Positions 501-42,228 are shown, counted from the first letter of the stretch. The stretch: 43,294 nucleotides of DNA from a virus (IMGVR_UViG_2609460053_000008); one strand, 5' to 3'. Program-made: numbers and translations. Notes: generated by a model not told the origin, from the letters alone.

Positions 501-603
501 GCAAGGCAACTAAGCCTGCATTAATGCCAACTTTTAGCGCACGGCTCTCTCCCAAGAGCCATTTCCCTGGACCGAATACAGGAATCGTATTCGGTCTTTT
601 TTT
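501..603 (+). ncRNA. sdsR: Small RNA SdsR/RyeB-like; its 3' end is the prophage attachment core
   Basis: Sequence GCAAGGCAACTAAGCCTGCATTAATGCC...ACAGGAATCGTATTCGGTCTTTTTTT matches recalled SdsR; terminal hairpin CCGAATAC/GTATTCGG plus T-run at 572-603. Confidence 0.6.
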
Positions 604-604
604 A
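578..604. repeat. attL core, left copy of imperfect 27-bp direct repeat ACAGGAATCGTATTCGGTCTTTTTTTA
   Basis: Direct repeat with 42202-42228 (2 mismatches); integrase gene lies immediately inside. Confidence 0.6.
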
Positions 605-640
605 ATTGTATTTAAAATCAATTAGTTGCAACCGTCTCCC

Positions 641-687
641 CGAAATTACTCGAAATTTACTCGAATTTCTGTATTCCGGTCTTTTTT
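641..687. repeat. Tandem CGAAATT(T)ACT repeats (candidate integrase arm sites) followed by a second partial core-like copy GTATTCCGGTCTTTTTT (671-687)
   Basis: Three adjacent 10-11 bp repeats at 641-670; 671-687 resembles core 3' half at 587-603; similar CGAAATTTTCT / CTCGAAAAAAAT motifs at 42059-42085. Confidence 0.4.
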
Positions 688-734
688 GGTTATATCACAA
701 CCAAAACACATTTAACAATCCATTTACGTTAAAA

Positions 735-1811
735 TCAGAGCAGTAAGTACGTTTTTTCTCTCTCATCAAGATACATTTTTGTTGTCTTCTCCGATGTGTG
801 GCCAAGTAGACGTTGAGCAAATTCTTCCCCACATGTTTCTTTGTACAATCGTCCAGCCAGGCTTCTGATCTCGTGAAAAGTTGGTGGGTTTTCACTGAAC
901 TGGATACCTGTTAATTTTCTGGCTGCGACAAATTTCTTTGTCAGGCCGTCCGGGTGAATGCTGCCGTCAGGGCTGTTTTTTCTAATCCCGGCACTGATTA
1001 GATAATCCCCCCTACTTACCATGCGGCACTGTTCAACTACTGCACCAAGTCGTAAACCAGCGACAGGAAGGCTGAGTGACAGGGGGATAGCAATCATCAT
1101 TCCTGTCTTAATTTGCCTGATGTGGAGACGATCATCATAAATCTCACTGAACCGCATATTTGTTATGTCTTCGCGACGTTGTCCTGTTACAAGGGCTAAG
1201 TCCATAGCTAATGGGAACCATGTCGGAAGTTGATCTGCTGCCTCCCTGATGCAGTTGTATGTCTTTAGTTTCAGCCGTTCTCTTGTAACTACTATTTTCG
1301 GTGCTCTTGTTGGCGTTACTGGATTTTGAGATATACGTCCTTCAACAATGGCCTCGCGGAACATATCAGATAACACAGAACGCATTGATCCTGCCATCGT
1401 GTTTTTCCCTCCTTCAATCCACAAATCAAGAAACTCGGCAATATGGCGAGTGGTTATTTCTGTCAGTAAAACCCCTCCTAATTTTTCTTTTATTGTCTCC
1501 AGTTGATTTACCCGAATTTTATAAGTATTTCTGGACACTTTTCTCCTTATAAGAATCGTTTTGTAACGTTCAATCCAGTCTGCCATAGTAAATGAGTCGA
1601 ACCCTTTTAGTTTTTCAATTAAGGCAGCAGGAGAGTAGTTTTTGTATATATAATGATTTGCTTCAATTGCCTGCGCTACTGCATCTCTTCTTGAAATTTT
1701 ACCTAGTGTAAATTCTTCTTTCGTCAGAGGGTTGCGCCAGTAATATGCTTTGTCCCTCCTTCGATATGTTAAGTTTTTAGGCAAATTGGGATCGTATTTT
1801 TTCCGCTGCAT
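735..1811 (-). CDS. int: Tyrosine site-specific integrase (lambda Int family)
   Basis: 358 aa; N-terminus resembles lambda Int arm-binding region ([21 protein letters not shown]); C-terminal catalytic region with HxLRH-type motif ([12 protein letters not shown]...[13 protein letters not shown]). Confidence 0.9.
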
Positions 1812-2064
1812 GTTTTAACTTCTCCAGTAACGGACTGTCTCTCCCTTGTCGCCCATTAGGCTGATGGTGTGTTATATCGGTATCAACCTTATTTGGGTTG
1901 ATATAGAAAGCTTCCGGAACCACCCTGTAACTCCTCCCGTGTAGTTCAGGTGCAGGATAAATGTTTCCATTCCTTGCCCATCGTCTCAGCGTTGATATTG
2001 ATGGTGGGTTATCCGGATATCTGAGTTTTCCCCACGTTTTGAGTGTCACAAGATTCATTGCCAT
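1777..2064 (-). CDS. xis: Excisionase (Xis-like)
   Basis: 95 aa ORF immediately upstream of and overlapping int; TLRRWARNGNIYPAPEL resembles lambda Xis DNA-binding region. Confidence 0.7.
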   Translation of the reverse strand: MAMNLVTLKTWGKLRYPDNPPSISTLRRWARNGNIYPAPELHGRSYRVVPEAFYINPNKVDTDITHHQPNGRQGRDSPLLEKLKHAAEKIRSQFA

Positions 2065-2164: not shown

Positions 2165-2353
2165 TCACGAGGACAGAAGTTTCTCGCAATTAAAATTTAT
2201 CAGCTTTACTTTCTGCTCTCTGGACACGCCTGCTTCTTTTTTCCCTGAGAGCATTTTTTCGCATTCTGATTTCGTTAATTTAGATTTTGAATATCTTGTC
2301 CAGTTAGTAGGAGTGCCACCTTCTTTTTCAATAGTGGCAGTTATTTTATACAT
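2165..2353 (-). CDS. Hypothetical small protein (62 aa)
   Basis: ATG preceded by GGAGG at 5 nt spacing; overlaps lar stop by 8 nt; start chosen inside the 86-aa ORF. Confidence 0.4.
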   Translation of the reverse strand: MYKITATIEKEGGTPTNWTRYSKSKLTKSECEKMLSGKKEAGVSREQKVKLINFNCEKLLSS

Positions 2354-2540
2354 GAACACCTCCATTATTATTTCCAGTAGTTCGTTTATTCCATCTTTCG
2401 AGTGCTTCTTTTTCACTTCCACCATAGCCAGTTCGGGATTCGCATCCGTTGCATTTTGCCCGGTAATATCCTGAAATGGCTTTCACCGTTACTGATGGAC
2501 AACCACAAAACGGACATGGTTTGACTTTTTCATACCGCAT
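2346..2540 (-). CDS. ralR: Restriction alleviation protein Lar/RalR-like, zinc-ribbon
   Basis: MRYEKVKPCPFCGCPSVTVKAISGYYRAKCNGCESRTGYGG matches recalled Rac RalR; Cys4 motif. Confidence 0.6.
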   Translation of the reverse strand: MRYEKVKPCPFCGCPSVTVKAISGYYRAKCNGCESRTGYGGSEKEALERWNKRTTGNNNGGVHV

Positions 2541-2603
2541 TGTCTTTTCTCTCATAAAATAAAGTTTTGTTATGGCGGTGAGGCTACACCGCCATAGTAA
2601 ATA

Positions 2604-3656
2604 TCAGGAGCCGATATATTCTGGTTTCATATCTGTCAGTGTCGTTTTATACGCCTCATATAATTCTCCCAGATGTGGTCGTGCAGCATTCAGCGTATTT
2701 TCCAGAGCAATAAATTTTTGTTCTGCTTCTGGATCACCTGATGAAGGCAGGTCATTTATCATCTTCTCAATACGGGCAATAGCATTGAGACGGTGATGAC
2801 GCTGAACCACTTTTCCTTTAAGTTCTGTGTAGAGAGCGCCAAGTGTATTTTTATGATCTTCCACTTCCTGGCGAAGTGCTGTTGTTTCTCCGGTGCTTTG
2901 TGCCTGCTCAATACGTTCACGGAAAGCACTGATCCAGTTTTCCCCGGCATCCTGCTCAATAATTGTTGTTTCACGTTCCGCACGGCAGGCGGATGTGTTT
3001 TTATGTTCCTGAACCGGATTAATGATTTTTTCCTGTGGTTCGTCCAGTTCGTCCCGGGTGTACACTCCAAGAATCACTTCAGGGCAATAAAGGCGCGCCC
3101 AGCGTTTCAGAGCCAGATAGGCAAGCTGCTGGCGAGGATCATCGGCCCATAACGTTGAGTTACGTGTTCTGGCCTGCGCCAGAAGTAACTCCAGTACGCG
3201 TGGCTTGCTCTCTCCGCGTAGTGTTGCCTGGACGCGAACACCGATCCCGTTTTCATCGGCCAGCTTCCAGCCAGGTACACGATATTCTTTCCCCTTGTCG
3301 TTCTTCCTGATTTCAAATTTCCCGATAATTTTTTCCCACGGCCCGAACCAGTCATATTCAATACGCCCGGTTAGCGGCCCACGAGTACTGATTACGGCAT
3401 TAACCAGTTGCGCTTCATATCCGAGCACACCATTCACAACGAAAGTTTTCTGAGCTACTGCGTAAGGGTTCATTTGCCACTGCATCGCCTGCATGGTGAT
3501 GGCCATGCAGTCTGATGGATTTCCCCGGAGGTGTTCCGGTACAGTAGCCATGCCGGAAGCCATTACCTGGGAAAATGTCTGAATTGCAGCCAGGGACTGA
3601 GGGCTGAAAACCGCAACATTAGAGTTAATATTTTCTTGTTGAGTTAATTCGTTCAT
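2604..3656 (-). CDS. Putative single-strand annealing recombinase (RecT-like position, downstream of recE)
   Basis: 350 aa; start sits 12 nt after recE stop in the same operon; family assigned by position only, sequence not confidently matched. Confidence 0.5.
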   Translation of the reverse strand: MNELTQQENINSNVAVFSPQSLAAIQTFSQVMASGMATVPEHLRGNPSDCMAITMQAMQWQMNPYAVAQKTFVVNGVLGYEAQLVNAVISTRGPLTGRIEYDWFGPWEKIIGKFEIRKNDKGKEYRVPGWKLADENGIGVRVQATLRGESKPRVLELLLAQARTRNSTLWADDPRQQLAYLALKRWARLYCPEVILGVYTRDELDEPQEKIINPVQEHKNTSACRAERETTIIEQDAGENWISAFRERIEQAQSTGETTALRQEVEDHKNTLGALYTELKGKVVQRHHRLNAIARIEKMINDLPSSGDPEAEQKFIALENTLNAARPHLGELYEAYKTTLTDMKPEYIGS

Positions 3657-3667
3657 TGTGTCCTTCC

Positions 3668-6600
3668 TCAGATGCTCAGTGCTTCAAGACGACGAAGATC
3701 AAAGTCGTTTAATTCGTCGGTATAACTTTCGGTAATCGGTGCTGGCCAGTTGTTTGTCTCCAGAGCTTCGTTTATCTGTCGTAGTGTCCGGCGATATTCC
3801 TGTCGACCAAGTTCCAGGAGTTCCTGCGAGGCTTCCACGACGGCCACCCAGTGATAGCCAGCATCTTTGTTGACGAAGATCCAGAAAAATTTGTCCAGGT
3901 TTGCCACATCGCAATACATTGCTGCGCTGAGGTGATAATCACGTTCAATAATTTCACGGTGCAGGCGATCTTTCAGTCGTTCCTGTCGCACATAACCGAG
4001 GCTGACTGACTTCACGTCGGCGCAAATGCTTTCGTATGGCAGCCGGATTTCGATATCAGGACGGACCCTGATTTCCAGCCCGGTTTCTTCATCAAACCCG
4101 AAATAGCTGATTTCAGATTTGCGATCCGGGTGGTTGAGTAGCCTTGCTGCATCGGTATTGTTTTGCAGTGCCGCGTGAATATTTTTTGCCTGTTCATACA
4201 TATCCGGACTGATAAACGTTTTCCCGGCGTTTTCTTCTTGCTGGCGTTTTTGCCAGTCCTCCAGCGTCACCAGTTCCGGGCGAATTTTCCGCGCGATTTC
4301 GGTTAATTGCTCTTTTGTGCCACTGATGTTGTAAGGCAAAGATTTAGCACGTTCTTTTTTTGCCAGTTCTGGGTCTACAGCTTCAATTTGATCCAGAAGC
4401 TGCTCCCGTGCTCCACTGGTTTTCAACAGAGGAGGGAGGCTTGCGTTGTATTCTTTAATACAGGCTTTCATTGCTGATGCTGTGTGTTTTTCCCCCTCAG
4501 GAATACGCCGAAATTCCACCGGAAGCGAACCGTAAAGGATGCCTGTTTCTTCGGCCCCAGCACTTATAGACAGTGGCTGTATAAGAGTGCTGTTGTAGCT
4601 TTCGATCCACTCTTTCATCTGCTCTGGTGTCATCAGTGCTGGCAGACTGGCATTGTGTTTTTTAATGATGGCGATCAGTTCGTTAGAAGTAGTAACCACA
4701 TATTCAGGAACCGGTACCGGAATGGCATATTCATCAGCGAATTTATCCGTTTCCAGAACATAGCTGTGAATGATCCGCCCACGCAGCAGTGCATCACTTT
4801 CCTCGTTCGGAATAGTTCCGGCAATGTGCCGCCCGTGGTAATACATCAGGCTGATACGGGCATCCTTCAGCATCGTGCTGCTTATTCCGTTGGCGGAGTG
4901 ATAAACCTCGTTCGGGAGGTTTTCATAGCGGCCAGGCTCGAAATATGATGGCCACATGATTTCAGTTACTACAGGTGCTGTCGCTTCACCAGTTTCATCA
5001 CCGCAATCGCGATGCAGATCGCTGCCAGCATTCTCATTGTGCGGATGTTCAGGGCCTTCCATTTCCTCCGGCTCTTTTTCCTGAGATTCATCCAGATTTT
5101 CTTCATTAAAGGTTTCCTGATACGTTGCGTCGCCCATCACCGCGCCACAGTCAGGACAGTTGCCGCCGCCAGTCTGACCGCAGGCGGTGCAAACTTTCTC
5201 CGTTTCCTGTTGTTGCACTACTGGCTCAGGCTGTTTCGTTTCTGGCTCGTTTTGTTGCGTATTTGGGTCGTTCTGTTCCGTTTCTGGCTGATTCTGGTAC
5301 ACAGAATCGCGGGTCTGGATCCCCTTAACCCATTTCGGATCATTCGGGTCGCTAATCCCTTCAACAAATTCTCCGCGAGAGGCAGCCAGTAATTTGTCTG
5401 CATCGACAGGATTTTTGGGCGGAATGTTTTTCCGGGCTTCATAGAGTTCTGCCCGCAGTTTCTGATATTTCGCATCAACAGAATTTACCTGTGACTGAGC
5501 ATCCAGCGGCTGCGTGTCCTGATGATGTTCAGTTGCATCCGGTTCCACTGTTTCAGCCGTTGCCTGTTCATCTGCCATTGCGCAAGATGGTTGCAGTTTT
5601 TCTTCATCATCCTGTTTTTCTTCTTCTGTTACACGCTGCGGCATCGGGGCAGAGGAACGACCGCAGGCAATATCCACGATTTCTGGATCAGGGTTGGCAT
5701 GATCAGTTTCAGTCAGTACTTTGTTAAGATATTCAGTGACGTGTGCGGGGATAACCTCGATCCCAATTGGTGCTTCTTTTACGGACGCAACCACGATGGC
5801 GCGGGAATAATCCAGCCCGCCAGGCATGGTGATGAATTTGTCGCGGAAAACAGAAAAGGGCGGTTTATTTTCAGCGATAATTTCCTCGACACGTTTAGCG
5901 TGTGCCGGATGAAGGTTATAAATGTCCACGTCCATTGAACGAGCCAGTACGCCAGTCGCTACGTCGCGCGCCAGTGACGTCAGATCGTGAACGAAACCTT
6001 CGCCGCGATCGGTGAGGTTCCCGCCGCCAGCATTAGCGCCGGAAGCCGTGCGCGTGATGCATGAAACACGATTTCCTTTCATCCACTCTTTTGTCAGCAG
6101 ACCGCGATCGGTGTAGTCTGCGTCCAGGTATGCTTCGAAAAAAGCAGTCATCAGCCCCAGGCTTGAATTGCCTGGATTAGGGAAAACTCTGTCAGTATCA
6201 CGCACCAGTTTGTGGAGATCGCGAATTTCCAGCGGGTCGAGCAGGCTGGTTTTGTGGGAAACAGCCAGGGCAGTAACAGCTGGTAGTTCTTCAGCTCGTG
6301 CAATGTGTAATGCCTGTAGTTCGTCGCGTGAAACGTGCGTTACCGGTTTTTCGCTGCCGTGTTGAGCAAGCCAGCGAATGGGCAGCTCCTGACCGGAAAT
6401 CGGGAGTAGCATATTCTCCTCAATCTCCGTCATGTCTTCGCCATTAACATTGGTATTGTCAGTGCTGGCTGGTTTGTCCTGCGCAGAGGATGAGGGCGTG
6501 ATAAATACCATTGTGATGCCATCTTCCCCGCCTTTTTCGTAACGGTTGCAGAATTCCGTATCAAATACGCCTTCTGGTGGAAGGTCATCAACAACGGGCA

Positions 6601-6796
6601 AATTGACGCGAACAGGTTTTTTAAAGTCATCTTCATCGTAGCCAGCATCGTCAATCGCAACAGCACCACGGGAGATGGCAATGGATAATTTTTTCGCTTC
6701 AGCCCAGTAGAAACCGCCTTTAATACCGAGACGTTTTCTTACTTTGTCATTTTTTGCTTCGTAATACAGTGGGTAAACTTGTTTATCGGTGCTCAT
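3668..6796 (-). CDS. recE: Exodeoxyribonuclease VIII (RecE), 1042 aa
   Basis: Long stretches match recalled Rac RecE ([43 protein letters not shown]...); acidic/Q-rich low-complexity linker. Confidence 0.85.
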
Positions 6797-6895
6797 TGTT
6801 TTTTAACCTCAACTCAGATTAAAATTAATGCGAGTGATGAATAAATGTCCCAGGTTCTTCACTCAGGCCTGCACAGTGTGCAGGCTTTCTTTTTT

Positions 6896-7171
6896 TCAGA
6901 TTTCACCTTTTAATTTCATTGCAATCAGAGTTGCCAGAAATTCGGCTTTTTTTTCTGCGGGCAGATTCTTTCCTATGTGCACCAGACACATTTTTTTAAC
7001 ACCATCGTTAAGTGTTTTAACGTTGCCTGATGGACCGTCGATATCAACCACAGTGAATGGGGTTTCTTTATTTTCTGTCTTAATCACGTAGCCAATACGC
7101 TTTCCTTCCAGGGTAACTTCGTGAACAATGTCATCAGTAGTAACAACAGTGGCTTCATAACTGGTAATCAT
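6896..7171 (-). CDS. racC: RacC-like protein
   Basis: MITSYEATVVTTDDIVHEV...LATLIAMKLKGEI matches recalled RacC; start taken at internal Met. Confidence 0.7.
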   Translation of the reverse strand: MITSYEATVVTTDDIVHEVTLEGKRIGYVIKTENKETPFTVVDIDGPSGNVKTLNDGVKKMCLVHIGKNLPAEKKAEFLATLIAMKLKGEI

Positions 7172-7245
7172 GTTTTTCTCCTTAATTAAGGTTGAGCGAA
7201 TCCCTGCCATTGCTGGCATAAATTCAGTTTCGGATAGTCAGTTAA

Positions 7246-7416
7246 TTAAAGTTCGTGTGCCATCTGGTCTTTTTCGGCACAGATTTCACTACAATATTTT
7301 TTCATTTCCGTCGTTGGTATAACTCCACGCATGAAATGAAGTGGTCTTGTAATGATTTTGCTCTCTTCAATTTCTTTATTGCAAAGGTGATAAGCACATT
7401 TTATTTTCTTAGTCAT
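7246..7416 (-). CDS. ydaE: YdaE-like small zinc-binding protein (56 aa)
   Basis: Hand-translated (below the ORF-track cutoff): [56 protein letters not shown]; start overlaps kilR stop (TAATG). Confidence 0.55.
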   Translation of the reverse strand: MTKKIKCAYHLCNKEIEESKIITRPLHFMRGVIPTTEMKKYCSEICAEKDQMAHEL

Positions 7417-7637
7417 TACCATGACTCCGCCTTTACAGGTAAACCATCACGACCGAGGAAGACTCTAATCATGCAGTCAGAAATGCATGTTTTTGTAGTC
7501 AGGCTACGAATATAAAGTTTTCGCTTTTTAATATTGTTTGCCGAGGCGATATATGTCCGACCTTCATGAAGAACATAATCGCCAGGGGTCACACACTGAC
7601 GTGGTATTTCATCAGTTCCGAAGTGATGAGCAATCAT
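7416..7637 (-). CDS. kilR: KilR-like cell-division inhibitor
   Basis: [44 protein letters not shown] matches recalled Rac KilR. Confidence 0.7.
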
Positions 7638-8032
7638 AATTATCTCCATTTTTACAAATGAATTTTGTCGATGCGGTGCCTGGTGCCTCCAGGTGACGTT
7701 AACCAGTTAACAATTAACGCCGGATAATCCACCCATAACACTGATGCTTTTAACTGTGCCGCGTGCGCTTAGCCGCATTCACCGCATCACAAAATTCACT
7801 TTAAAAAGGGGCGGCAGGGCAGCCACGGAGTAGAACTGATGCCGCCAAAGACTACACATAGCAATGTCGTTATTTACAACCGGAGGCGCACTCCCACCAT
7901 TTAAATTTAACAGACAAGACCGACTCTTTATGAATACCGGAAATGCGCCTTCGTGTTGTGCGCCTGTCTTTTTACCACTTCAGGCTCGGTGGTATACTGG
8001 AGTTCTCACACAACCAGTAATAAGGTATTCCG

Positions 8033-8227
8033 ATGGATAATAAAGACAAAGCCTGGCTACTTGCTTTAGCTTTCAGCATCAGATCGCAGCGAGAAACAAC
8101 TCATCAAGAATTTTTCTCGGAAATCGAGAATGCTGAGAATGAGTTTTTGTCACTACTCAATGAACGTGATGCTAAAAAAAGCGCCGATTCACTTAAGGCT
8201 TGGGCGAAACTAGGCTCTTCAAAATAA
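8033..8227 (+). CDS. Hypothetical protein (64 aa) in immunity region
   Basis: ORF with upstream GGTATTCCG then ATG; convergent with the 8193-8411 gene. Confidence 0.35.
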   Translation: MDNKDKAWLLALAFSIRSQRETTHQEFFSEIENAENEFLSLLNERDAKKSADSLKAWAKLGSSK

Positions 8228-8411
8228 TTGCTTCTGTAGCGGCATGAACAACTGTTTTTGCCGCCTCTTCAACTTCCTTGTCTGGACGACCAGCCTTTAC
8301 TTTTTCTGCAATGACATCCAGCACAGTTGGAAGAACCTTGCTAATAAGCATGGCTGCCACATCTTTGCTGCACAATTGACCGTTAATAACAACCAGATCT
8401 TCACCAACCAT
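8193..8411 (-). CDS. Hypothetical protein (72 aa), first gene of leftward transcript
   Basis: ATG preceded by AGGGGA at about 8 nt; AACAC-N5-GTGTT operator-like palindrome at 8604-8618 upstream. Confidence 0.45.
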   Translation of the reverse strand: MVGEDLVVINGQLCSKDVAAMLISKVLPTVLDVIAEKVKAGRPDKEVEEAAKTVVHAATEAIILKSLVSPKP

Positions 8412-8654
8412 CTTTTTTCCCCTTAACGCCGGGTGGCGGAACGTTTTATCTACTGCGCTTTGTATCAATCAACAACTGCCGTCATGTTCGTATGCCTCAG
8501 GCTGGCTACTTAGCCCTGTTCAGTGGCTGGATAACTCGAGGTATTGTCCTGCCGTTCTCTGGTGGGGCGTTGTTTGGATATGCTTATTAAACACAATGCG
8601 TTTTCTTATGTCAACACGAAATGTGTTTTATGGTGAGTGTCATATGATGATGGT

Positions 8655-8681
8655 ACAAAAAAGCCCGCTGATAGCGGGCTG
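8655..8681 (-). terminator. Rho-independent terminator downstream of the repressor gene
   Basis: Hairpin AGCCCGCT-GATA-AGCGGGCT followed on the minus strand by a T-run. Confidence 0.6.
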
Positions 8682-8710
8682 ATTGGCATATTACTGTGAT
8701 AGCAAGATCA

Positions 8711-9130
8711 TTACTCCGGTGGGGGATTATCTTTAAGCCTGCCTCTCAAATATTTTTCTACATACTCATCGATTTCTTTTAGCCGGACTTCAAATAGCTC
8801 AATCATTCGTTGTTGTTCTGAGCCCGGTAGCTGGTTAAACAACTCAAGAAGTTTTCGTTGGGATTCATTTAACCACAATTCAGAAGATTCCTGTTCTCCA
8901 AATAGGAGCTCAGGAGGAGATATGCCAAGTGCCTTTCCCAATACGACAGCGTCATGCACTCCAACATTTCTGCTGCCCGCCTCATAGTTACCTATACGCG
9001 ATTGCGTCCATCCGCAGATTTCAGCAAGTTTTCCTTGAGATAAACCAAGCTTCTGCCTGCGCTCTTTAAGACGCATTGCAATTTTGTCATTGAGCCTACT
9101 AGCGGCAATTTTTTCGTTTTCTTTTTCCAT
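8711..9130 (-). CDS. Prophage repressor, HTH XRE family, no S24 peptidase domain
   Basis: 139 aa; HTH LKERRQKLGLSQGKLAEICGWTQSRIGNYEAG; divergent from the Cro-like gene; no Ala-Gly / Ser...Lys autocleavage module. Confidence 0.8.
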   Translation of the reverse strand: MEKENEKIAASRLNDKIAMRLKERRQKLGLSQGKLAEICGWTQSRIGNYEAGSRNVGVHDAVVLGKALGISPPELLFGEQESSELWLNESQRKLLELFNQLPGSEQQRMIELFEVRLKEIDEYVEKYLRGRLKDNPPPE

Positions 9131-9141
9131 TGCATCCTTGT

Positions 9142-9202
9142 ATCACGAATCGTGATTTATATAAAACACAAAACAGCTTGACCATATAACACAAGGTGTG
9201 TT
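9142..9202. promoter_or_regulatory. Divergent promoter/operator region: palindromes ATCACGAATCGTGAT (9142-9156) and AACACAAGGTGTGTT (9188-9202); candidate -35 TTGACC at 9178-9183
   Basis: Perfect inverted repeats between divergently transcribed repressor and cro-like genes. Confidence 0.5.
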
Positions 9203-9226
9203 TAAAATTGTCATCGGAGGTTTTCA

Positions 9227-9469
9227 ATGAACAAAATTTCAACATATCGAAAACAGCTTGGGCTGTCTCAAAGACAACTTGCTGTTCAGTTAGGGTGGAT
9301 ACAAAGCCGACTGGCAAATTACGAAGCAAATTTTCGTACCCCTGGACTAGAGGAGTGCAGAAAAATTGTTTCTACCCTTAATCGGCTTGGCGCTCATTGT
9401 GGACTTGACGATGTATTCCCCCCAGACGGTAAGCATAGCGAAAACAGCATAGGAGCGGTTGATTCATGA
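9227..9469 (+). CDS. Cro-like HTH regulator (YdaS-like)
   Basis: 80 aa; HTH YRKQLGLSQRQLAVQLGWIQSRLANYE; GGAGG RBS; divergent from repressor. Confidence 0.7.
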   Translation: MNKISTYRKQLGLSQRQLAVQLGWIQSRLANYEANFRTPGLEECRKIVSTLNRLGAHCGLDDVFPPDGKHSENSIGAVDS

Positions 9470-9888
9470 AAATCAGGCATGAGCACATCGAATCAGTGTT
9501 GTTAGCCCTGGCAGCCGAAAAAGGGCAGGCGTGGGTCGCTAACGCAATTACTGAAGAATATCTGCGCCAGGGGGGCGGCGAATTGCCCCTTGTACCAGGC
9601 AAGGACTGGAACAATCAGCAGAATATCTATCACCGTTGGTTGAAAGGTGAAACGAAAGCGCAAAGGGAAAAAATTCAGAAACTGATCCCTGCGGTTCTGG
9701 CAATTCTTCCGCGCGAGCTGCGTCACCGACTCTGCATCTTCGATACCCTGGAACGCCGTGCATTACTGGCGGCGCAGGAAGCGTTGAGTACGGCAATTGA
9801 TGCGCATGATGATGCAGTCCAGGCCGTTTACCGGAAAGCACATTTCAGCGGTGGTGGGTCGCCCGGCGATTCTGTCGTAGTGCATTGA
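9466..9888 (+). CDS. YdaT-like regulatory protein
   Basis: 140 aa, translationally coupled to the cro-like gene; N-terminus MKIRHEHIESVLLALAAEKGQAWVANAITEEY resembles Rac YdaT. Confidence 0.55.
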   Translation: MKIRHEHIESVLLALAAEKGQAWVANAITEEYLRQGGGELPLVPGKDWNNQQNIYHRWLKGETKAQREKIQKLIPAVLAILPRELRHRLCIFDTLERRALLAAQEALSTAIDAHDDAVQAVYRKAHFSGGGSPGDSVVVH

Positions 9889-9965
9889 TTGAAATTAATC
9901 GTGCCGGATTGTTTTGTTCGGTATCAGTTAAATGTAACGCTGCGAGCGTTACAAGGTGAAAACAA

Positions 9966-10760
9966 ATGGCTTCAAACTGGATAAAGCTCGAGGTTATTAC
10001 GCCGGATAAGCCGGAAATATTCAGGCTTGCTGAGATTCTGAATATTGATCCAGATGCCGCATTAGGGAAGGTTATTCGCTTCTGGGCATGGGCGGATCAA
10101 CAAATGATAGACGGTAATGCAGATTGTAACGCTCGCGGCGTTACAAAAAGTGCAATAGATCGCATCACTTTTATGGCTGGTTTTGCTGATGCGTTAATTC
10201 AGGTTGGATGGCTGGTCGAAAATGACGGTGGGCTTTCTCTACCTAACTTTGAACGTCATAACGGGAAAAGCTCTAAAAAACGGGCGGTTACAAACGAGCG
10301 AGTTACAAAAATACGCGAACTGAAACGAAAAGGTAACGCTGCCAGCGTTACACAAACGGATCAAAAAGCGTTACCAGAGGAAGAGGAAGAGGAAGAGGAA
10401 GATATAAATACTGATCTCCCCCTAAATCCCCCTCGCCAAAAACGAGCGTCTAAAAAATTCGAGCCGGAGGCTATCGAGCTGCCTGACTGGTTGCCGGAAA
10501 CACTCTGGCATGAGTGGGTTCAGTTCAGGCAGGCATTGCGAAAACCGATTCGAACGGAGCAGGGCGCTAACGGGGCGATACGGGAGCTGGAAAAATTCCG
10601 CCAGCAGGGTTTTACACCTGAGCAGGTGATTCGACACAGCATCGCCAATGAATACCAGGGCCTGTTCGCGCCGAAAGGTGTTCGGCCTGCGACGTTGCTC
10701 CGACAGGTTAACACCGTCTCGTTGCCGGACAGTGCGATCCCGCCAGGTTTCAGGGGGTAA
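9966..10760 (+). CDS. Putative phage replication initiation protein
   Basis: 264 aa directly upstream of the DnaC-like loader; contains acidic run EEEEEEEED encoded by (GAAGAG)n. Confidence 0.5.
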   Translation: MASNWIKLEVITPDKPEIFRLAEILNIDPDAALGKVIRFWAWADQQMIDGNADCNARGVTKSAIDRITFMAGFADALIQVGWLVENDGGLSLPNFERHNGKSSKKRAVTNERVTKIRELKRKGNAASVTQTDQKALPEEEEEEEEDINTDLPLNPPRQKRASKKFEPEAIELPDWLPETLWHEWVQFRQALRKPIRTEQGANGAIRELEKFRQQGFTPEQVIRHSIANEYQGLFAPKGVRPATLLRQVNTVSLPDSAIPPGFRG

Positions 10761-10766
10761 CAGACC

Positions 10767-11513
10767 ATGAAAAATATTGCGACAGGAGGCGTTCTGGAGC
10801 GTATCCGCAGACTGACCCCACCACATGTAACCGCCCCATTCAGAACGGTTGCGGAGTGGCGCGAGTGGCAACTTGCTGAAGGCCAGAAACGTTGCGAGGA
10901 GATCAACCGCCTGAATCGTCAGTTGCGGGTGGAAAAAATCCTGAATCGCTCTGGCATCCAGCCGTTGCACCGCAAATGCTCGTTTGCGAATTACCAGGTG
11001 CAGAACGAAGGGCAGCGATACGCGTTAAGCCAGGCGAAATCCATCGCCGATGAACTGATGACCGGGTGTACAAATTTTGCGTTCAGCGGAAAACCTGGTA
11101 CCGGGAAGAATCACTTAGCGGCAGCTATCGGGAATCGCCTGCTGAAAGACGGTCAGACAGTGATTGTGGTTACCGTGGCTGATGTTATGAGCGCCCTGCA
11201 CGCCAGCTATGACGACGGGCAGTCAGGCGAAAAATTTTTGCGGGAGCTGTGCGAAGTGGATCTGCTGGTTCTTGATGAAATTGGCATTCAGCGCGAGACG
11301 AAAAACGAGCAGGTGGTACTGCACCAGATTATTGATCGACGGACAGCGTCGATGCGTAGCGTGGGAATGCTGACAAACCTGAACTATGAGGCCATGAAAA
11401 CATTGCTCGGCGAGAGGATTATGGATCGCATGACCATGAACGGCGGGTGTTGGGTGAATTTTAACTGGGAGAGCTGGCGTCCGAATGTCGTCCAGCCAGG
11501 AATAGCGAAGTAA
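10767..11513 (+). CDS. DnaC-like helicase loader (IstB-type AAA+ ATPase)
   Basis: Walker [14 protein letters not shown] and Walker B LLVLDEIG. Confidence 0.8.
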
Positions 11514-11535
11514 TTTTTACCGGGAGAAAAATTTA

Positions 11536-12297
11536 ATGGAGACTGTTTTTGACGCACTGAAAGCAATGGGAAAAGCCACATCCATAGAACTTGCTGCGCG
11601 ACTTGATATCAGTCGTGAAGAAGTGCTGAACGAACTATGGGAACTGAAAAAGGCTGGTTTTGTTGATAAAATCGCGTACACCTGGCGTGTGGCTGATAAC
11701 AACGTTCAGCAGGAACAGCCAGAGCAGGCAGAACTGCCGGAAGAAACCACCACGGCAACAGTAGCGAAAATCTCAGAGTGCGATTTAACCGCGACGATTG
11801 AACAACGTGGCCCACAAACGGCGGATGAACTGGCTACGTTTTTCGGCACCACATCACGCAAAGTGGCTTCAACGCTGGCAATGGCAATCAGCAAAGGCCG
11901 TCTGATTCGCGTTAATCAGAACGGTAAATTTCGTTACTGCATGCCGGGCGATGATTTACCAGCAGAGCCGAAAGCTGCATCGGTAACGGAAACTGATGGT
12001 AAAGCCTTTCCTCAACCAGCAGGTGTTGCGTTACCGGGACAGGAAGCTGCAACACAGGAAGATATTAAAACAGAAACTGTGGCGGACATTGTGCAGTCGT
12101 TGCCATCGTTTACCGAAACGCGAGCGGATGACCTCGTTCTGCCATCGCTGCATATGGCAAACCGCGAACTGCGTCGGGCGAAAAATCATGTCCAGAAGTG
12201 GGAGCGTGTCTGCGCCGCGCTGCGGGAGCTGAACAAGCACCGGGATATTGTTCGACAGATTACTGATTCTTCTCGCTGTGTTGCATCGGAAAAGTGA
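11536..12297 (+). CDS. Hypothetical phage protein with N-terminal winged-helix-like region
   Basis: 253 aa ORF with GGAGAAA RBS. Confidence 0.5.
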
Positions 12298-12312
12298 TTG
12301 CCGGAGGCGCTT

Positions 12313-12736
12313 ATGGCAAAAGTATTTACACAAGAAGAGCGGGAAAAAAATCAAGGGACAGGTTGTTGAGCTAGTACGCCGGAGTGGGCGCGAGACGTTA
12401 CGGCAACTGGAAGCCAAGACAGGTGCGACAAGATATCTGATGAGCGTTCTCGCAAGAGAGCTGGTTGCCAGCGGCGATGTATACAACTCCGGCTACGGGT
12501 TATTCCCCTCTGAACAGGCGCGTAAGGACTGGCAAAACGCCCGCAAAAAACTCTCGAGGGCAAAGGTGAAGAAACCTGCTGTGGTTGATCCGGACCTTAT
12601 CTGGTCATCACCTGACGGAGAAATACGTCGCTACGACAGTCGCCTAAACATAATCTGTCGCGAGTGCCGGAAGAGTGAAGCTATGCAGCGTGTACTGGCT
12701 TTCTATCAGGGTAATTTTCAGGAGGCGGTACTGTGA
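12313..12736 (+). CDS. Hypothetical protein; RBS-backed ATG at 12313 is out of frame with the long ORF (A7 tract 12344-12350), or an internal start at 12440
   Basis: GGAGG-ATG at 12313 reads MAKVFTQEEREK then stops at 12367; long frame has no start codon between 12298 and 12440. Confidence 0.4.
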
Positions 12737-12793
12737 GTGAAATTAGCTATCAGGCTTCAATTACCGCTGGCATTCGCATCAAAGGAGAGGAGC

Positions 12794-13150
12794 ATGGAAA
12801 TAAAACCAGAGGATGAGTTAAGCAATATCGTTTTATTTCCGGTAAAAGAGGATGACCCTCGTAATCAGGTTAATTTTCTTTATGAGCCATCGGAAAGACC
12901 ATATTGTCATCACGCCTCTGTCCGGGTTGACGAAAAAGAGCGTCAGGTCCGCTGTAAAATCTGCGGTGCAGTTGTGGAGCCATTTGACTGGATGCTCTCT
13001 GTGGCGAAAAGAGAAACCAGACTGGCAGATGATGTAAGGCTCTTGCGTCAGGAGGAGCGGGAAAGGCGAAAAAATATAGAAAAGCTAATTCAGATTGAGC
13101 GTAACGCGAAAGCGCGGATACGCAGGGCGACAAAATCCAGAACTGAATAA
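12794..13150 (+). CDS. Hypothetical protein with Cys/His-rich motif and basic coiled C-terminus
   Basis: AGGAGAGGAG RBS before ATG (MEIKPEDEL); C-x-H-H...C-x2-C. Confidence 0.5.
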   Translation: MEIKPEDELSNIVLFPVKEDDPRNQVNFLYEPSERPYCHHASVRVDEKERQVRCKICGAVVEPFDWMLSVAKRETRLADDVRLLRQEERERRKNIEKLIQIERNAKARIRRATKSRTE

Positions 13151-13243
13151 TTAAATTTAGCTCTGTTAAAAATTTAATCCTTAACCGGAGGGATTTCTGC
13201 ACCCTCAGAATATCAGGAGGCCGCCCGAAAGGGCGGTAGTTAA

Positions 13244-25914: not shown

Positions 25915-25925
25915 GGAACAGACGA

Positions 25926-28968: not shown

Positions 28969-28971
28969 GCT

Positions 28972-30117
28972 ATGGCACAGGGCTTGCCTGTATCAAACGT
29001 TGTTAATGTTGATGTGATCATGTCGCCGCGTGCAGCATCAGGGCGAAATTTTGGTGCATTACTCATTCTCGGCCCGTCCACAATCATTCCGGTAAGTGAG
29101 CGCATTCGCCGTTATTCTGCCGCGGAAGATATTGGAAAAGATTTTGGCGTGGAATCACCAGAATATAAGGCTGCGCAGGTGTTTTTCTCTCAATCACCGA
29201 AACCTCAGGAGGTTTTTGTTGGTCGTTGGGTGAAAACGAAGGGAGACAGCGAACAGGCCACGCCTGAGACGCTGGAGCAGGCTGTGAATGCCATGCTCGA
29301 TTATACTTCATGGTATGGGCTGGGGATTGCAGACGATGCAGATATTCCGGATGCAGACTGGCTGAAAGTGGCTGCGGCGATCGAATCCTCTTCTGTAAGC
29401 CGTATTCTGGCGATTACGACAAGCGATGAGAAATGCCTGCAGACTGCATCCAGCGATGATTTGGCATCAAAACTGAAAACCGCCGGATATTCACGCAGTT
29501 TTATTCAGTATTCATCGGGTAATAAATACGCTGCGTTATCTGCATTTGGCCGGGCATTCACGGTTAATTTCAATGGCAGTAATACCGCGATTACGCTCAA
29601 GTTTAAGCAGGAGCCGGGTGTCGGGTATGAAACACTGACAGTCAGCCAGGCATCGGCACTTGATGCAAAAAACTGCAATGTATTCGTGTACTACCAGAAT
29701 GATACGGCTATCCTCCAGCAGGGAGTGATGGCTAACGGCGATTTCTTTGATGAACGCCACGGCCTGGACTGGTTACAGAATTATGTGCAGACCAACCTCT
29801 ATAACCTGCTTTATACCAGCACCACGAAAGTTCCCCAGACTGAAGCCGGTATTACCCGACTGTTATCAAATGTTGAAAAATCACTGGATCAGGCCGTTCA
29901 GAATGGACTGATTGCTCCGGGCGTATGGAACGGGGGCGACCTTGGTCAGTTGTCATCAGGTGACACACTGCCCAAAGGTTATTACGTATACGCCCAGCCG
30001 CTGGATGAACAGGCACAATCAGAACGTGAAGCCCGTAAGGCTCCGGTGATTCAGGCTGCAATAAAACTTGCAGGCGCGGTTCATTACGCTGACGTACAGA
30101 TTAACGTTGTTCGCTAA
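28972..30117 (+). CDS. Tail sheath protein (putative)
   Basis: 381 aa immediately upstream of a 146-aa tube-like gene, chaperone pair and tape measure. Confidence 0.55.
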
Positions 30118-30127
30118 GGGGAAGTGA

Positions 30128-30568
30128 ATGTCTACCTATTCTTTTATGGATGTCACTGCGACGCTGACCGGGCCGACCGGTTCGATTGACCTCGGGTACG
30201 GTTCGGCAAGTTCTGAAGAGGGGATTGTGGTTGCGATGGGCGGTCCTAAAAACACCATGACCATCGGTGCTGATGGCGAAGTGATGCACAGTCTCCATGC
30301 AGATAAAAGCGGGACGATTACCGTTAACCTTCTGAAGACATCACCGACAAATAAAAAATTGTCGCTGGCGTATAACGCACAGAGCCAGTCTTCTGCCACA
30401 TGGGGGAATAACGTTATCGTGATCCGCAACAAGGTCAGCGGCGACATCATCACGGCACGCAGTGTTGCGTTCCAGAAACAACCGGATAACGCCAACGCTA
30501 AAACCGGTAATACGATGCCGTGGGTGTTTGACTGCGGCAAGATTGACCAGGTTCTCGGGGAGTTTTAA
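30128..30568 (+). CDS. Tail tube protein (putative)
   Basis: 146 aa between sheath and chaperone genes. Confidence 0.5.
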   Translation: MSTYSFMDVTATLTGPTGSIDLGYGSASSEEGIVVAMGGPKNTMTIGADGEVMHSLHADKSGTITVNLLKTSPTNKKLSLAYNAQSQSSATWGNNVIVIRNKVSGDIITARSVAFQKQPDNANAKTGNTMPWVFDCGKIDQVLGEF

Positions 30569-30571
30569 TAC

Positions 30572-31024
30572 ATGGAATTCGAAATCAAAGGCGTGAAATA
30601 TCGCGTGGCAAAACTCAGCGTTTTTGACCAGCTGAAAGTGACCCGCAAACTTCTGCCGGTACTGGCAGGAATGATGTCAGATTTCGGGAGCATTCGCTCC
30701 CGTTTGCCTGCTGACGGCAAAATCGACACCGTGAAATTCGAGCAGTTAAAACCGGTGTTTGAAACCATGCTCCCGCGTATCGCTGAGGAACTGTCTTCCC
30801 TGACCGAAGATGACACCGATGCGATTATTCATCCCTGTCTTGCGGTGGTGTCGCGGCGTCATATGGATGGATGGGTGCCGGTATTTACCCAGGGCGAACT
30901 GATGTTTGATGATATTGACTTGCTGGTCATGCTTCATCTGGTGGCGCGGGTGGTCGCCGATTCGCTGGGAAATTTTTTGCCTACACCCCTTACCAGCACG
31001 ACACAGAGCCTGCAACAGGGCTGA
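30572..31024 (+). CDS. Tail assembly chaperone (zero-frame product)
   Basis: 150 aa upstream of tape measure; slippery heptamer A_AAT_TTT at 30970-30976. Confidence 0.55.
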   Translation: MEFEIKGVKYRVAKLSVFDQLKVTRKLLPVLAGMMSDFGSIRSRLPADGKIDTVKFEQLKPVFETMLPRIAEELSSLTEDDTDAIIHPCLAVVSRRHMDGWVPVFTQGELMFDDIDLLVMLHLVARVVADSLGNFLPTPLTSTTQSLQQG

Positions 31025-31212
31025 CGTTTAACAGCCTGCCGGACGGGCTGTCCTACCTTCTCAATCCGGTTGACGCCGGGTTAATTCCCTATACAGCACT
31101 TAAAGATGGCTCTGTCGATTTGTATGACATTGCTCTCTTGAATGACCATCTGGCGGTAAAAGCGGATAACCAGCGGCGCATTGAGAAATGGAGAGAGGAT
31201 AATGAACGCTGA
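30572..31212 (+). other. Predicted -1 frameshift fusion product of the tail assembly chaperone
   Basis: -1 frame is open from the slippery site to TGA at 31210-31212, overlapping the tape measure start. Confidence 0.5.
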
Positions 31213-39082: not shown

Positions 39083-41505
39083 TGGCGAAAAATGACTTTA
39101 AAGCGTTTGCAACTGATCGGAATGCCAATGTTATGTCGCAGGAGGAATGGGAAGCGTTGCCTGCGCTTTTATCCGGATTTACAGCAGGGAAAGCATCCAG
39201 TGCGCAGGTGAACAAAGCCATTCGACAGGCCAGCTTTATTGCTGCAGCTCTGGCCCAGTTTGTAAGTGACAAAACGCAACGGGATGTGCTTGATAATGGT
39301 GATCTGCCCGGTTTTGTTGAATTGCTTGGATCGGGGTTTGCTGTTGAATACCTGAGTCGCAAGAATCCGTTTGGTGATATCAAATCGGACGGCACGGTAG
39401 AACGCGCTCTTGAAAATCTGGGGTTACAGGATGTAAAAGCTGGTTCATTGAACAATCTGTACACTAACCATTCCCGTAGTGTCTTAATGGAATTGCCGTT
39501 ATTATTCCCGGACTACGATACGGTGCTGGCTGCTCAGTCTGGTGCGGAATATATGTATCCACAGGGATTTGTGGTGACAGGAGAAAAAATCTATCTGAGT
39601 TATACCGTTGAGCCAAAGCAGACACGGAACGTTATAGTTCAGTACACAACATCCGGCGAATATGAGGGATATTATTATGTCGATAATGGAGGTCGTGGCG
39701 TTGTCAGCGAAGGCCTTGTGGTGACAACGGATTACGGTGGATTACGTTTGTTCATGTCAGGAGAAAATGGATTACTGAAACAGTTTTCGCTTGATGGGGC
39801 AATTTCTGGTTCAGTATTGCCGTTAATTGATGAACATGATGTCGGTGTTTACAACCAGTTCAGCTATCGTAAAAACCGCTGGGTGGTTGAACAGTCAGCG
39901 CCGGAAGTGGGAGGCCTGATCACCCGCACAGTATTTGCGGTGTATGATTTTCAGTTTCGTCGGACAGGGACATTCACATTACCGTTGCATGATTCCGGAT
40001 ATATCACGGAAAGCACAGACAGCTATGCAAGACGCTTCACAAAACGTCAGGGAATTGCTGTGGGAGACGATTATATTGCCTGTTCTTATGGTGGCTATTT
40101 TAATACCGGGGCATCAGCCGGATTTAACCAGTTTCAGGGGGTTAAGGTCTTTTCTCCGGATGGAGTAAAGCAGCAGGAATCCATTCTTCATCCCCAAAAA
40201 ATGATAGATGTGCTTACCAGGCAGGGTTTTACACCTTCGCGCATTGAGAACGAAGGAATTTGTATTTCTGACGACGGCGGCAGTATATATTCGCTTTATA
40301 TCTTTCTGGAGCGTGGGTTACCACAGGCTTATCAGAAAGGAATTGTTCTGATGAAAGAGTTCAGTACTGGCAGAGATGCTATTGATTTTCGTCAGGCAGC
40401 CTGGTTGTACACGGGGTTTGATGTGTCTCATGCCAGTATTGGAACATTTCCCCGTAGTGCCCAGGGGTTGGTAAACCCGGTGTTGGGGACGGTATTCACA
40501 TCCCTGTCTGAAATTCTGGCATATATGCGTTCTGTGAGTCAGAAATGGTTTTGTCTGCATACAACCACGACACCGATTAAAGATCTGAGTGGAAATGACA
40601 TTCCTGCTGACAATTATGTGTTCATCAAGAATGCTAATAACCAGACATTCTATATAACGCAGGAGTCAGCTGAAGGTGGAATAAAATATAAAGCTGTCAC
40701 TACAGACAGCGGAGAATATGGTTTTCAGCGACAAAGAGAGGCAATCTGGTCCAATGTTATCACCATCGCACAAAAGAGCGATGGTGAGGATCAGTTTAAT
40801 CGTATTATCGCTGCCTCGAAAAGTGGTTCAGGTAAAAATCAGGATAAAATACTGGTAGTTGACCAACAGGCATCAGAGGGGAATAACACGCTGGTAATTG
40901 GCGGTGGTTCATCTGTGTTCAGGTCAGCGACAGTGATTGATTTTGCAACGAATCAGGATGCAAATGCCACAGGAGGAGAAAAGAGATGGCGCATAGATTC
41001 ATCAGGAAATCTCCGCCCTTATACAGATAATACGTATTCGATCGGTTATGCCTCATGGCGACCCGCACAGGTTTATTCAGCTACGGGAAGTATCAGTACA
41101 TCAGACCGGACTCATAAACAGGACGAAACAATTCTGTCGGATGCAGAAAAAAGGGTTGCCAGAAAGCTGCTCGGGTATATCTGTCGGTTCCGTTTCAGGG
41201 ATGCAGTGTCCAGCAAAGGGAACGCAGCCAGATGGCATGTAGGAGTGATTGCTCAGGACGTACAGAAGGTCTTCTCTGAGGAAGGGCTGGACGCTTTTGA
41301 TTACGGTATTTTGTGTCGTGATGAATATCCGGCGGAATATGAAGTGGTTTACGGGACTCGTATGGAGCTTGGTCCTGACGGACTCCTTACAATGGAAGAA
41401 TACGATACCGGAGAGCGCAAGCTGGTCAGGGAGGCTGGTGAAATAATGTCTGTAAGGAATGATGAGCTGCATTATTTCATGCTGGCATCGCTGTCTGGCC
41501 AGTGA
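39082..41505 (+). CDS. Tail fibre protein with C-terminal intramolecular chaperone (peptidase S74-like) domain
   Basis: 807 aa; C-terminal motif SDRTHKQDETI...RWHVGVIAQDVQKVF from 41101; start could be 39064. Confidence 0.85.
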   Translation: MAKNDFKAFATDRNANVMSQEEWEALPALLSGFTAGKASSAQVNKAIRQASFIAAALAQFVSDKTQRDVLDNGDLPGFVELLGSGFAVEYLSRKNPFGDIKSDGTVERALENLGLQDVKAGSLNNLYTNHSRSVLMELPLLFPDYDTVLAAQSGAEYMYPQGFVVTGEKIYLSYTVEPKQTRNVIVQYTTSGEYEGYYYVDNGGRGVVSEGLVVTTDYGGLRLFMSGENGLLKQFSLDGAISGSVLPLIDEHDVGVYNQFSYRKNRWVVEQSAPEVGGLITRTVFAVYDFQFRRTGTFTLPLHDSGYITESTDSYARRFTKRQGIAVGDDYIACSYGGYFNTGASAGFNQFQGVKVFSPDGVKQQESILHPQKMIDVLTRQGFTPSRIENEGICISDDGGSIYSLYIFLERGLPQAYQKGIVLMKEFSTGRDAIDFRQAAWLYTGFDVSHASIGTFPRSAQGLVNPVLGTVFTSLSEILAYMRSVSQKWFCLHTTTTPIKDLSGNDIPADNYVFIKNANNQTFYITQESAEGGIKYKAVTTDSGEYGFQRQREAIWSNVITIAQKSDGEDQFNRIIAASKSGSGKNQDKILVVDQQASEGNNTLVIGGGSSVFRSATVIDFATNQDANATGGEKRWRIDSSGNLRPYTDNTYSIGYASWRPAQVYSATGSISTSDRTHKQDETILSDAEKRVARKLLGYICRFRFRDAVSSKGNAARWHVGVIAQDVQKVFSEEGLDAFDYGILCRDEYPAEYEVVYGTRMELGPDGLLTMEEYDTGERKLVREAGEIMSVRNDELHYFMLASLSGQ

Positions 41506-41516
41506 ATAATATTAAT

Positions 41517-41541
41517 GTAAGGAGCGATATAAGCTCCTTAC
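41517..41541 (+). terminator. Hairpin terminator after the tail fibre gene
   Basis: GTAAGGAGC-GATATAA-GCTCCTTAC perfect 9-bp stem. Confidence 0.5.
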
Positions 41542-42201
41542 ATCATGCATTTTATGCTGCGATTATGCGTTCTCCTGTTGTTTGTTGCTGAGAGTGAAAC
41601 ACCGGAAACATACTGGTGGATTGAAATGTTCTGTGTGGCAGCGTATGAATATGTCGTGGTAGGGTGGATAAAAAATGCCCGTGATGATCCGGGCAACATA
41701 GCAGTATGCATTTTTCTATTGTGAACTGATGCATTATACAAGTAATGCTGTTATTGAGGAAAGTTTAAAGAAGCGGCTCTTCTCCGCCTGTAAAGTTTGG
41801 TCATTATTGCTTTATATATAAGTTCCACCAGTAGGCGATCATCTATGATGTTGGCGTATCGACTTTGTATAAGAAGTTTCCAGTCGGAGATAAATGAAAC
41901 CGTAGCACGTCGTATGCAAGAACGTGCCACGGCTGGCTGATGGACGTTCGATAGCGCGAGTTTGAATGAAAATCAGCCGGAGGTGATTTTACATAATTGT
42001 TGCGGAATCATTCAATATAGGGATTGCTTATTTCTGCCTGGATTGGTCTGAAATAGTCCCGAAATTTTCTCTAAAAAACTCGAAAAAAATGGTAACTAAT
42101 TGAATGCATTAATATGCAATGGTACGTGTTTGGGATTAAAAGATGAGCGTGATTTTGTTTAACACATTAATTTAAAAAGGGTTTCTTGTTTGTTGACGAA
42201 A

Positions 42202-42228
42202 ACAGGAATCGTGTTCGGTCTCTTTTTA
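42202..42228. repeat. attR core, right copy of imperfect direct repeat ACAGGAATCGTGTTCGGTCTCTTTTTA
   Basis: 25 of 27 positions identical to 578-604; flanked inside by CGAAA-type arm-like motifs at 42059-42085. Confidence 0.6.

Follow-up and report, generated by a model that had tools for sequence, protein, structure and literature searches.

The stretch of DNA analysed here (IMGVR_UViG_2609460053_000008, 43,294 nucleotides; hereafter the window) carries the chromosomal genes yebY and pphA at its two ends and, between them, the small RNA (sRNA) gene sdsR (also ryeB) followed by a 41,624-bp mosaic temperate phage with ~60 phage genes. The window is 100% identical to Escherichia coli FDAARGOS_1289 (NZ_CP069882.1), the source of the RefSeq annotation made with the Prokaryotic Genome Annotation Pipeline (PGAP). 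A sequence-only reading of this DNA had proposed a prophage between yebY and pphA, integrated into the sdsR 3' end, with a 27-bp repeat carrying two mismatches at both ends, whose left copy forms the terminator stem and T-run of SdsR, and with an integrase gene just inside that copy; our analysis confirms each of these points. In the K-12-like genome L001, yebY, sdsR and pphA are contiguous, and the window aligns to this empty site with its left flank up to position 604 and with its right flank from 42197 onward. Across 5426 complete E. coli genomes (junctions counted at ≥80% query coverage), the empty junction, represented by a 141-nt spanning query, is found in 5191 genomes, and in 5118 genomes it is matched at ≥99% identity.

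The left repeat ACAGGAATCGTATTCGGTCTTTTTTTA (attL) recurs at the right end as ACAGGAATCGTGTTCGGTCTCTTTTTA (attR). No third core copy exists in the window at ≤3 mismatches, and none of 100 dinucleotide-preserving shuffles of the sequence contained a match to the 27-mer. A tandem or composite element was considered and rejected because just two core copies exist at this threshold. Rfam covariance models place SdsR_RyeB (RF00111) at 504-603 on the plus strand (118.1 bits, gathering score 38, all 100 model positions covered) and the antisense RNA SraC/RyeA (RF00101) at 463-607 on the minus strand (179 bits). An ARAGORN search of the window for tRNA and tmRNA genes is negative. The 27-bp repeat thus lies at the end of an sRNA gene, terminating 1 nt beyond the SdsR 3' end and inside the RyeA match. 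At attL, the left copy forms the 3' arm and the U-tract of the SdsR terminator, which has an 11-bp stem and a 7-nt loop and a predicted folding energy of -15.8 kcal/mol (z = -4.4; ViennaRNA). The attR context folds with only -4.7 kcal/mol (z = +0.6) and forms no terminator hairpin.

The integrase gene lies 130 bp inside the left repeat copy and its open reading frame is intact. Its product (Int) contains the Pfam arm-binding domain PF09003 (28.1 bits, cut-off 22, residues 3-61), the central domain PF22022 and the catalytic domain PF00589 (59.4/27.1 bits). An alignment to lambda Int (5J0N; E = 1.4e-71) shows conservation of all six catalytic residues, R212, K235, H308, R311, H333 and Y342. An excisionase gene (xis) overlaps the start of int. 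Between the core and int, the P' arm holds a candidate site for integration host factor (IHF), three tandem repeats and a further half-site resembling C'; on the other side, a P arm with three repeats and an inverted IHF-like site lies inside attR (Table 1).

Table 1. Position of the features at the junctions, in the prophage and in the chromosomal flanks of the window.
Feature	Position	Strand	Evidence and remarks
yebY, left chromosomal flank	1-342	+	RefSeq annotation of the identical record NZ_CP069882.1; flank in 5426/5426 E. coli genomes
RyeA (SraC) body, severed from its own promoter	373-607	-	RF00101 at 463-607; 3' end placed at ~373 from the 270-nt length (PMC6610125)
sdsR sigma-S -10 hexamer TATTCT	489-494	+	mapped via the primer in PMC6610125
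sdsR (ryeB) sRNA gene	502-603	+	up to 577 chromosomal; ~15 nt from 589 phage-derived; 578-588 identical in both parents
SdsR rho-independent terminator	569-597	+	arms 569-579/587-597, loop AGGAATC 580-586; terminator scan
attL 27-bp repeat	578-604	+	strand exchange confined to 578-588 (ACAGGAATCGT) in the four-way att alignment
Candidate IHF site AATCAATTAGTTG, at the position of lambda H'	616-628	+	exact match to the consensus WATCAANNNNTTR
Three tandem CGAA(A/T)T repeats, candidate arm-type sites P'1-P'3	640-669	+	starts at 640, 650 and 661; 10-11-bp period
C'-like half-site GTATTCCGGTCTTTTTT, second copy of the terminator 3' arm	671-687	+	after the third P' repeat; repeat search
int, lambda-type heterobivalent tyrosine integrase, 358 aa	735-1811	-	intact open reading frame; Pfam and lambda Int alignment
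xis (excisionase)	1777-2058	-	PF07825 Exc, 52.1 bits; RefSeq 'excisionase'
Rac-like early/regulatory region	2165-19573		RalR/RalA, recT, recE, kil, DicF, cI-like and cro-like repressors, ydaT, replication genes, hokD/sok, isrK/C4/ORF6N, lysis genes (RefSeq)
RalA RNA	2169-2347		Rfam
DicF RNA	7809-7860		Rfam
sok RNA	14348-14519		Rfam
isrK RNA	16704-16780		Rfam
C4 RNA	16808-16892		Rfam
SEN34-like myovirus morphogenesis module, terminase to tail fibre	19960-41505	+	annotation and phage-database search
P arm, three 10-11-bp repeats CCCGAAATTTT, CTCTAAAAAA, CTCGAAAAAA (candidate arm-type sites)	42058-42088	+	motif search
Inverted IHF-like site after the P arm repeats	42093-42105	+	motif match
attR 27-bp repeat	42202-42228	+	from 42202 rightwards identical to native attB
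Native ryeA promoter and RyeA nt 1-38, pointing into the prophage	42229-42278	-	-10 TATGGT 42278-42273, start ~42266; data of PMC6610125 mapped on the window
pphA, right chromosomal flank	42362-43018	+	annotation

Position of the strand exchange in the SdsR terminator

Both parental sites of the two junctions can be read from other records. The native attB of empty-site E. coli consists of ACAGGAATCGTGTTCGGTCTCTTTTTA followed by TCTGTTAAA, base for base the right repeat copy of the window with its flank. A joined attP is present in the phage record PP818812.1, in which the right and left arms of the window are united through one core; the Int of this record is 98.3% identical to that of the window, and its P arm, core and P' arm are 92-97% identical. 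In attP the core ACAGGAATCGTATTCGGTCTTTTTTTA is flanked by GTTGACGAAA on the left and ATTGTATTT on the right, and in attB the core ACAGGAATCGTGTTCGGTCTCTTTTTA is preceded by the left flank GGACCGAAT. The attL of the window combines the left flank of attB with the heterologies and the right flank of attP, while its attR combines the left flank of attP with the heterologies and the right flank of attB.

In this four-way alignment, the heterologies at core positions 12 (A/G, 589) and 21 (T/C, 598) go with the right-hand parent, and a T/A difference just left of the core (577) goes with the left-hand parent, being bacterial at attL. Since the heterologies at 577, 589 and 598 sort by parent, the exchange is confined to the 11 bp of identity between them, ACAGGAATCGT (578-588 and 42202-42212). 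This block spans the terminator loop of 7 nt and 2 further bp to either side, and is centred on a loop between 10-bp inverted stem arms. As judged from the alignment, no more than 11 bp (578-588) of the 27 bp belong to the functional recombination core. The other 16 bp of the 27-bp repeat is phage mimicry of the sRNA 3' end. More generally, heterologies between attP and attB can serve to map a crossover, in this case to the terminator loop of an sRNA.

The same mimicry preserves the sRNA. The lysogen keeps a full-length SdsR because attP closely imitates the sdsR 3' arm and U-tract to the right of the exchange block. Compared with native SdsR, the lysogen form differs by two base changes, which turn a U·G wobble into a U-A pair and the tail CUUUUU into UUUUUU. 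The native 3' segment, now displaced to attR, has kept its sequence. The proposal that the phage supplies a functional SdsR 3' end is therefore borne out by the rebuilt terminator, and the native and the rebuilt hairpins have equal predicted stability (-15.8 kcal/mol each; ViennaRNA). A stabilising effect of the phage-supplied A on the terminator was rejected for this reason. The attP context itself is predicted to form no terminator (-4.0 kcal/mol, z > 0).

Taken together, these data very probably reflect an event in which the lambda-type tyrosine integrase of a 41,624-bp temperate phage inserted that phage into the sdsR terminator hairpin. The alignment shows attL to be attB-left plus attP-right and attR to be attP-left plus attB-right. 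In the mechanism proposed, the terminator loop AGGAATC would serve as the overlap region, and the stem arms as the core-type Int sites (B/C'). The arm-binding domain would deliver Int from three 11-bp-spaced CGAAA repeats in each arm, IHF may bend the DNA at the consensus site 616-628, and Xis together with Int would reverse the integration.

Occupancy of the site in E. coli and other Enterobacterales

The attL junction (query 545-745) and the attR junction (query 42060-42290) are each found in 228 of the 5426 genomes, so the share of complete E. coli genomes in which a phage with this att module occupies sdsR is ~4%. Only 18 of the 228 genomes with the attR junction are ≥99% identical at attR. 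As minor observations from the same searches, the attL junction query has no match in 21 E. coli genomes, and one copy of the yebY-sdsR region is plasmid-borne. NZ_AP027783.1 matches the left flank only to base 516, at two places, which suggests that sdsR is interrupted there.

The layout of the att module is conserved well beyond E. coli. The 11-bp register of the arm repeats is kept in 15 relatives with Ints 47-98% identical to that of the window, among them prophages or phages of E. coli, Salmonella (phage ZC-S1_prp), Citrobacter, Lelliottia, Phytobacter, Atlantibacter, Intestinirhabdus and others. The C'-like half-site, in the form TAT(T/C)C(C)GGTCT, is kept in all 15 family members, and is also present in L003/L004 (the pPE4 attP of PP818812.1) and in L128, while an IHF motif resembling TCA(A/G)NNNN(C/G)TTA is recognisable at a similar place in about half of the 15. 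The P arm layout is likewise seen in Pantoea, Kluyvera, Leclercia, Buttiauxella and Enterobacter, where it lies upstream of displaced cores of the attR type. In a species scan for the core (one genome per species, >120 loci), ~20 of the ~109 sdsR loci among the matches listed have an Int homologue, full or remnant, 100-160 nt downstream, and at least 11 cores among these matches are displaced attR-type copies. These homologues and displaced cores thus mark the site as a hot spot across the enterobacteria, with an integrase lineage dedicated to it.

The module is not tied to one phage body. In E. coli ERL03-1416 (NZ_CP032811.1), a lambda-like siphovirus body lies behind 93%-identical arms at sdsR, and the int/att module is therefore common to mosaic phages. 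The sdsR-site prophage of this strain (locus 18750-31116) has a ~10-kb insert that splits the terminase large-subunit gene. With a separate integrase, an Icd-like gene, a primase and a capsid-protease fusion, the insert looks like a nested P4-like satellite or a second phage. In the O121 lysogen NZ_CP119441.1 (locus 1782-2479), an IS1A lies between the P' arm and the integrase gene and probably immobilises that prophage. Outside the genera named above, the ail-carrying Yersinia enterocolitica BT1A prophage vB_Yen_24-YE00064 is reported to be integrated beside a YebY-family gene with an att of 27 bp (PMC12653942); it probably occupies the same sdsR site, which that report does not recognise as an sRNA target.

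Alternative readings and known systems

The sequence-only reading had further noted that the right copy lost its pairing, and had taken the displaced original to be decaying after the phage supplied a good 3' end. Indeed, the copies differ at 2 of 27 positions, and attR forms no terminator, so the observation on pairing stands. Its cause is a different one: the hairpin is missing at attR because the 5' stem arm lies outside the duplicated segment, and not because of the G mismatch. That the attR copy has since mutated, thereby breaking a hairpin, is refuted by its identity with the native attB of empty-site E. coli from 42202 rightwards. The G represents the native U·G wobble, in a native hairpin that folds as well as the rebuilt one, and the free attP of PP818812.1 contains the two variant bases. 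We give decay practically no credence, and the apparent decay of a displaced att copy can be mere attP/attB heterology. The strand exchange could also be placed further to the right, in the U-tract, if the heterologies came from mismatch correction or from another attP allele. Alleles do vary: the attL core of lysogen L127 (NZ_CP074756.1, locus 2078-2104) reads A...C and not A...T, and attP is therefore polymorphic at core position 21, with no single universal attP. However, both heterologies of the window have the phage base at attL and the chromosomal base at attR; A is found at attL position 12 in three lysogens including the window, and G...C at attR in two. Across genera, identity in the displaced core copies always starts at ACAGG, which fits an exchange in the loop and makes the U-tract a very improbable place for it.

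A more substantial alternative is a fixed, defective prophage that neither excises nor forms particles, its att repeats being relics. PGAP annotates three pseudogenes in the prophage (a DUF977 gene and a hypothetical gene, both with frameshifts, and a gp53-like tail-fibre segment that is partial), from which virion production becomes uncertain, and both excision and integration by this prophage are predicted here from sequence. Against a cryptic state, int, xis, both arms and both cores are intact, and a 98%-identical int-attP module exists in the joined, excised form. The distribution is patchy (the 228 of 5426 genomes above, with the few near-identical attR junctions among them), the same att module sits on different phage bodies, and the late structural genes are 97.6% identical, over 76%, to the isolated E. 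coli myophages vB_EcoM-611R5 and 606R2. We consider a cryptic prophage unlikely; excision competence looks intact as far as the predicted genes and sites indicate, and infectivity is uncertain. Besides the pseudogenes, the reliance on sequence and the polymorphic attP, three further points weigh against Int-mediated integration into the terminator loop as proposed above. The putative 7-bp overlap region is bounded only to 11 bp by the alignment, the arm-type and IHF sites are candidates assigned from motif conservation, and the record that supplies the joined attP has an odd host label. This record, PP818812.1, is named 'Actinobacillus phage vB_Apl-pPE4', and carries the E. coli Rac-type genes recET, kil, ydaT and a dicA-like gene, and its stated host Actinobacillus is doubtful. 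It resembles the prophage of the window in its Int, its attP and its RecET/kil/ydaT early genes; it differs in its size (47.5 kb) and in having another morphogenesis module, and it is absent among the matches to the structural module.

Phage integration at the sdsR 3' end has a direct precedent in Salmonella, the ryeA/ryeB insertion hot spot of Balbontín et al. 2008 (J Bacteriol 190:4075). According to PMC7380047, PMC3333887 and PMC3603311, which summarise that work, PhiW104 and older islands use the last ~23 bp of Salmonella ryeB, inside ryeA, and PhiW104 lysogeny is described in one review as lowering ryeA expression and raising ryeB expression (PMC7380047). Phage integration in the ryeB 3' end was thus already published in 2008, and the E. 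coli case is the same kind of event. As far as the review descriptions go, the likeness extends to the position of the att core in the last ~23 bp of ryeB inside ryeA, to the rebuilding of the sRNA by phage DNA, to the replacement of the ryeA 5' part (here with its promoter), and to repeated use of the site, which left remnants in Salmonella. Here, by contrast, the host is E. coli, the native attB reads G...C as opposed to A...C/T in most genera, and the phage body is a Rac-like/SEN34-like mosaic. The Int of Salmonella phage ZC-S1_prp is 72% identical to that of the window, with the same core and arm layout. Our literature search found no description of an sdsR phage integration site specific to E. 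coli, its sole near match being the Yersinia prophage mentioned above.

The lambda system shares the three-domain architecture and catalytic residues of Int, the Exc-family Xis, an int gene abutting the P' arm, and an IHF consensus between the core and three tandem P' arm repeats. It differs in that the Int of the window is only ~41% identical to HK022/lambda-type Ints, that the core and arm sequences are unlike, and that the target is an sRNA terminator and not the intergenic gal-bio attB. In addition, the C'-like half-site after the third P' repeat is without a counterpart in the lambda attP, and the P arm seems to contain three repeats.

The claim that the integration mirrors the logic of tRNA and tmRNA insertion is also supported. 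As in those elements, the insertion lies in the stem-loop of a stable RNA, a copied 3' part keeps the gene whole, int lies beside the intact gene, and the displaced 3' fragment is found at the far end. The target here is an Hfq-dependent sRNA, so the element works alike but is not a member of that class. Integration in the anticodon loop or T-loop of tRNA genes has a geometry similar to that proposed here, with the loop as overlap region and the arms as core sites. Integration into tRNA and tmRNA 3' ends, e.g., by P4, P22 and HP1, was reportedly classified by Williams in 2002. Because the target has an overlapping antisense RNA and a downstream read-through gene, the insertion at sdsR would not be neutral for ryeA and pphA.

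Possible consequences at the locus and the prophage body

In K-12, SdsR 3' ends were mapped at +100 to +102, and RyeA, with a start ~38 nt beyond where SdsR ends, is made from a sigma-70 promoter, the -10 hexamer of which was mutated (Choi et al. 2019, PMC6610125). The same study reports that sdsR transcription is hindered by ryeA transcription and that most transcription of pphA comes from the sdsR promoter by read-through. When these data are transferred to the window, the -10 hexamer and the start of ryeA lie to the right of attR, and thus the ryeA promoter (PryeA) and RyeA nt 1-38 face the P arm of the prophage in the lysogen. The first terminator-like site on the minus strand ahead of the stranded PryeA is at 41695-41676. 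On the basis of the published K-12 data, the RyeA body at attL would lose its promoter in the lysogen, and pphA would be uncoupled from the sdsR promoter, now 41.6 kb away. The changes predicted for the sRNA pair agree with the lowered ryeA and raised ryeB expression described for Salmonella PhiW104 (PMC7380047). A consensus scan found no promoter facing the RyeA body at attL or in the P' arm. A replacement promoter picked by eye (TTGCAA-N15-TACAAT, 631-605, minus strand) was rejected, its 15-nt spacer being too short.

It is thus conceivable that lysogeny rewires this sRNA locus in ~4% of E. coli, measurably raising SdsR activity and silencing pphA, a proposal that we put forward tentatively and hold to be somewhat less probable than its opposite. 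If true, the rewiring would join four effects, namely the uninterrupted U-tract tail, the removal of PryeA, the disconnection of pphA and the redirection of PryeA into the P arm. The removal of PryeA would matter in that convergent transcription and the antisense RNA normally hold SdsR down, and the SdsR targets touched would include tolC, ompD-like porins and mutS. In the 228 lysogens among the 5426 genomes, the ryeA promoter and pphA lie 40-60 kb from sdsR, a wiring unlike that of K-12, and K-12 results on the toxin/antitoxin-like SdsR/RyeA pair and on pphA read-through may not transfer to them.

A side observation concerns the RyeA model itself. The 5' end of the Rfam SraC_RyeA consensus (AauUAAAAAaAG, model positions 1-12, equivalent to 607-596) matches the phage-supplied junction and not native E. 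coli (AGAUAAAAAGAG). This match suggests that genomes with an sdsR 3' flank of phage origin dominate the seed alignment.

The body of the prophage is not set apart by its base composition, with a GC content of 0.489 compared with 0.456 and 0.464 in the flanks. Its late region is 80.7% identical to Salmonella phage SEN34, in addition to the match with the isolated E. coli myophages. The regulatory RNAs of the prophage all score above the Rfam gathering thresholds; the RalA antitoxin lies opposite ralR (2169-2540), and sok lies with hokD (14348-14672). The isrK/C4 pair (16691-16892) is located upstream of an ORF6N antirepressor-like gene and constitutes an immunity module of the P1/Gifsy type. 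At the far end, a ~700-bp unannotated stretch between the tail-fibre gene and attR contains two terminator-like hairpins, at 41676-41695 (minus strand) and 41513-41545.

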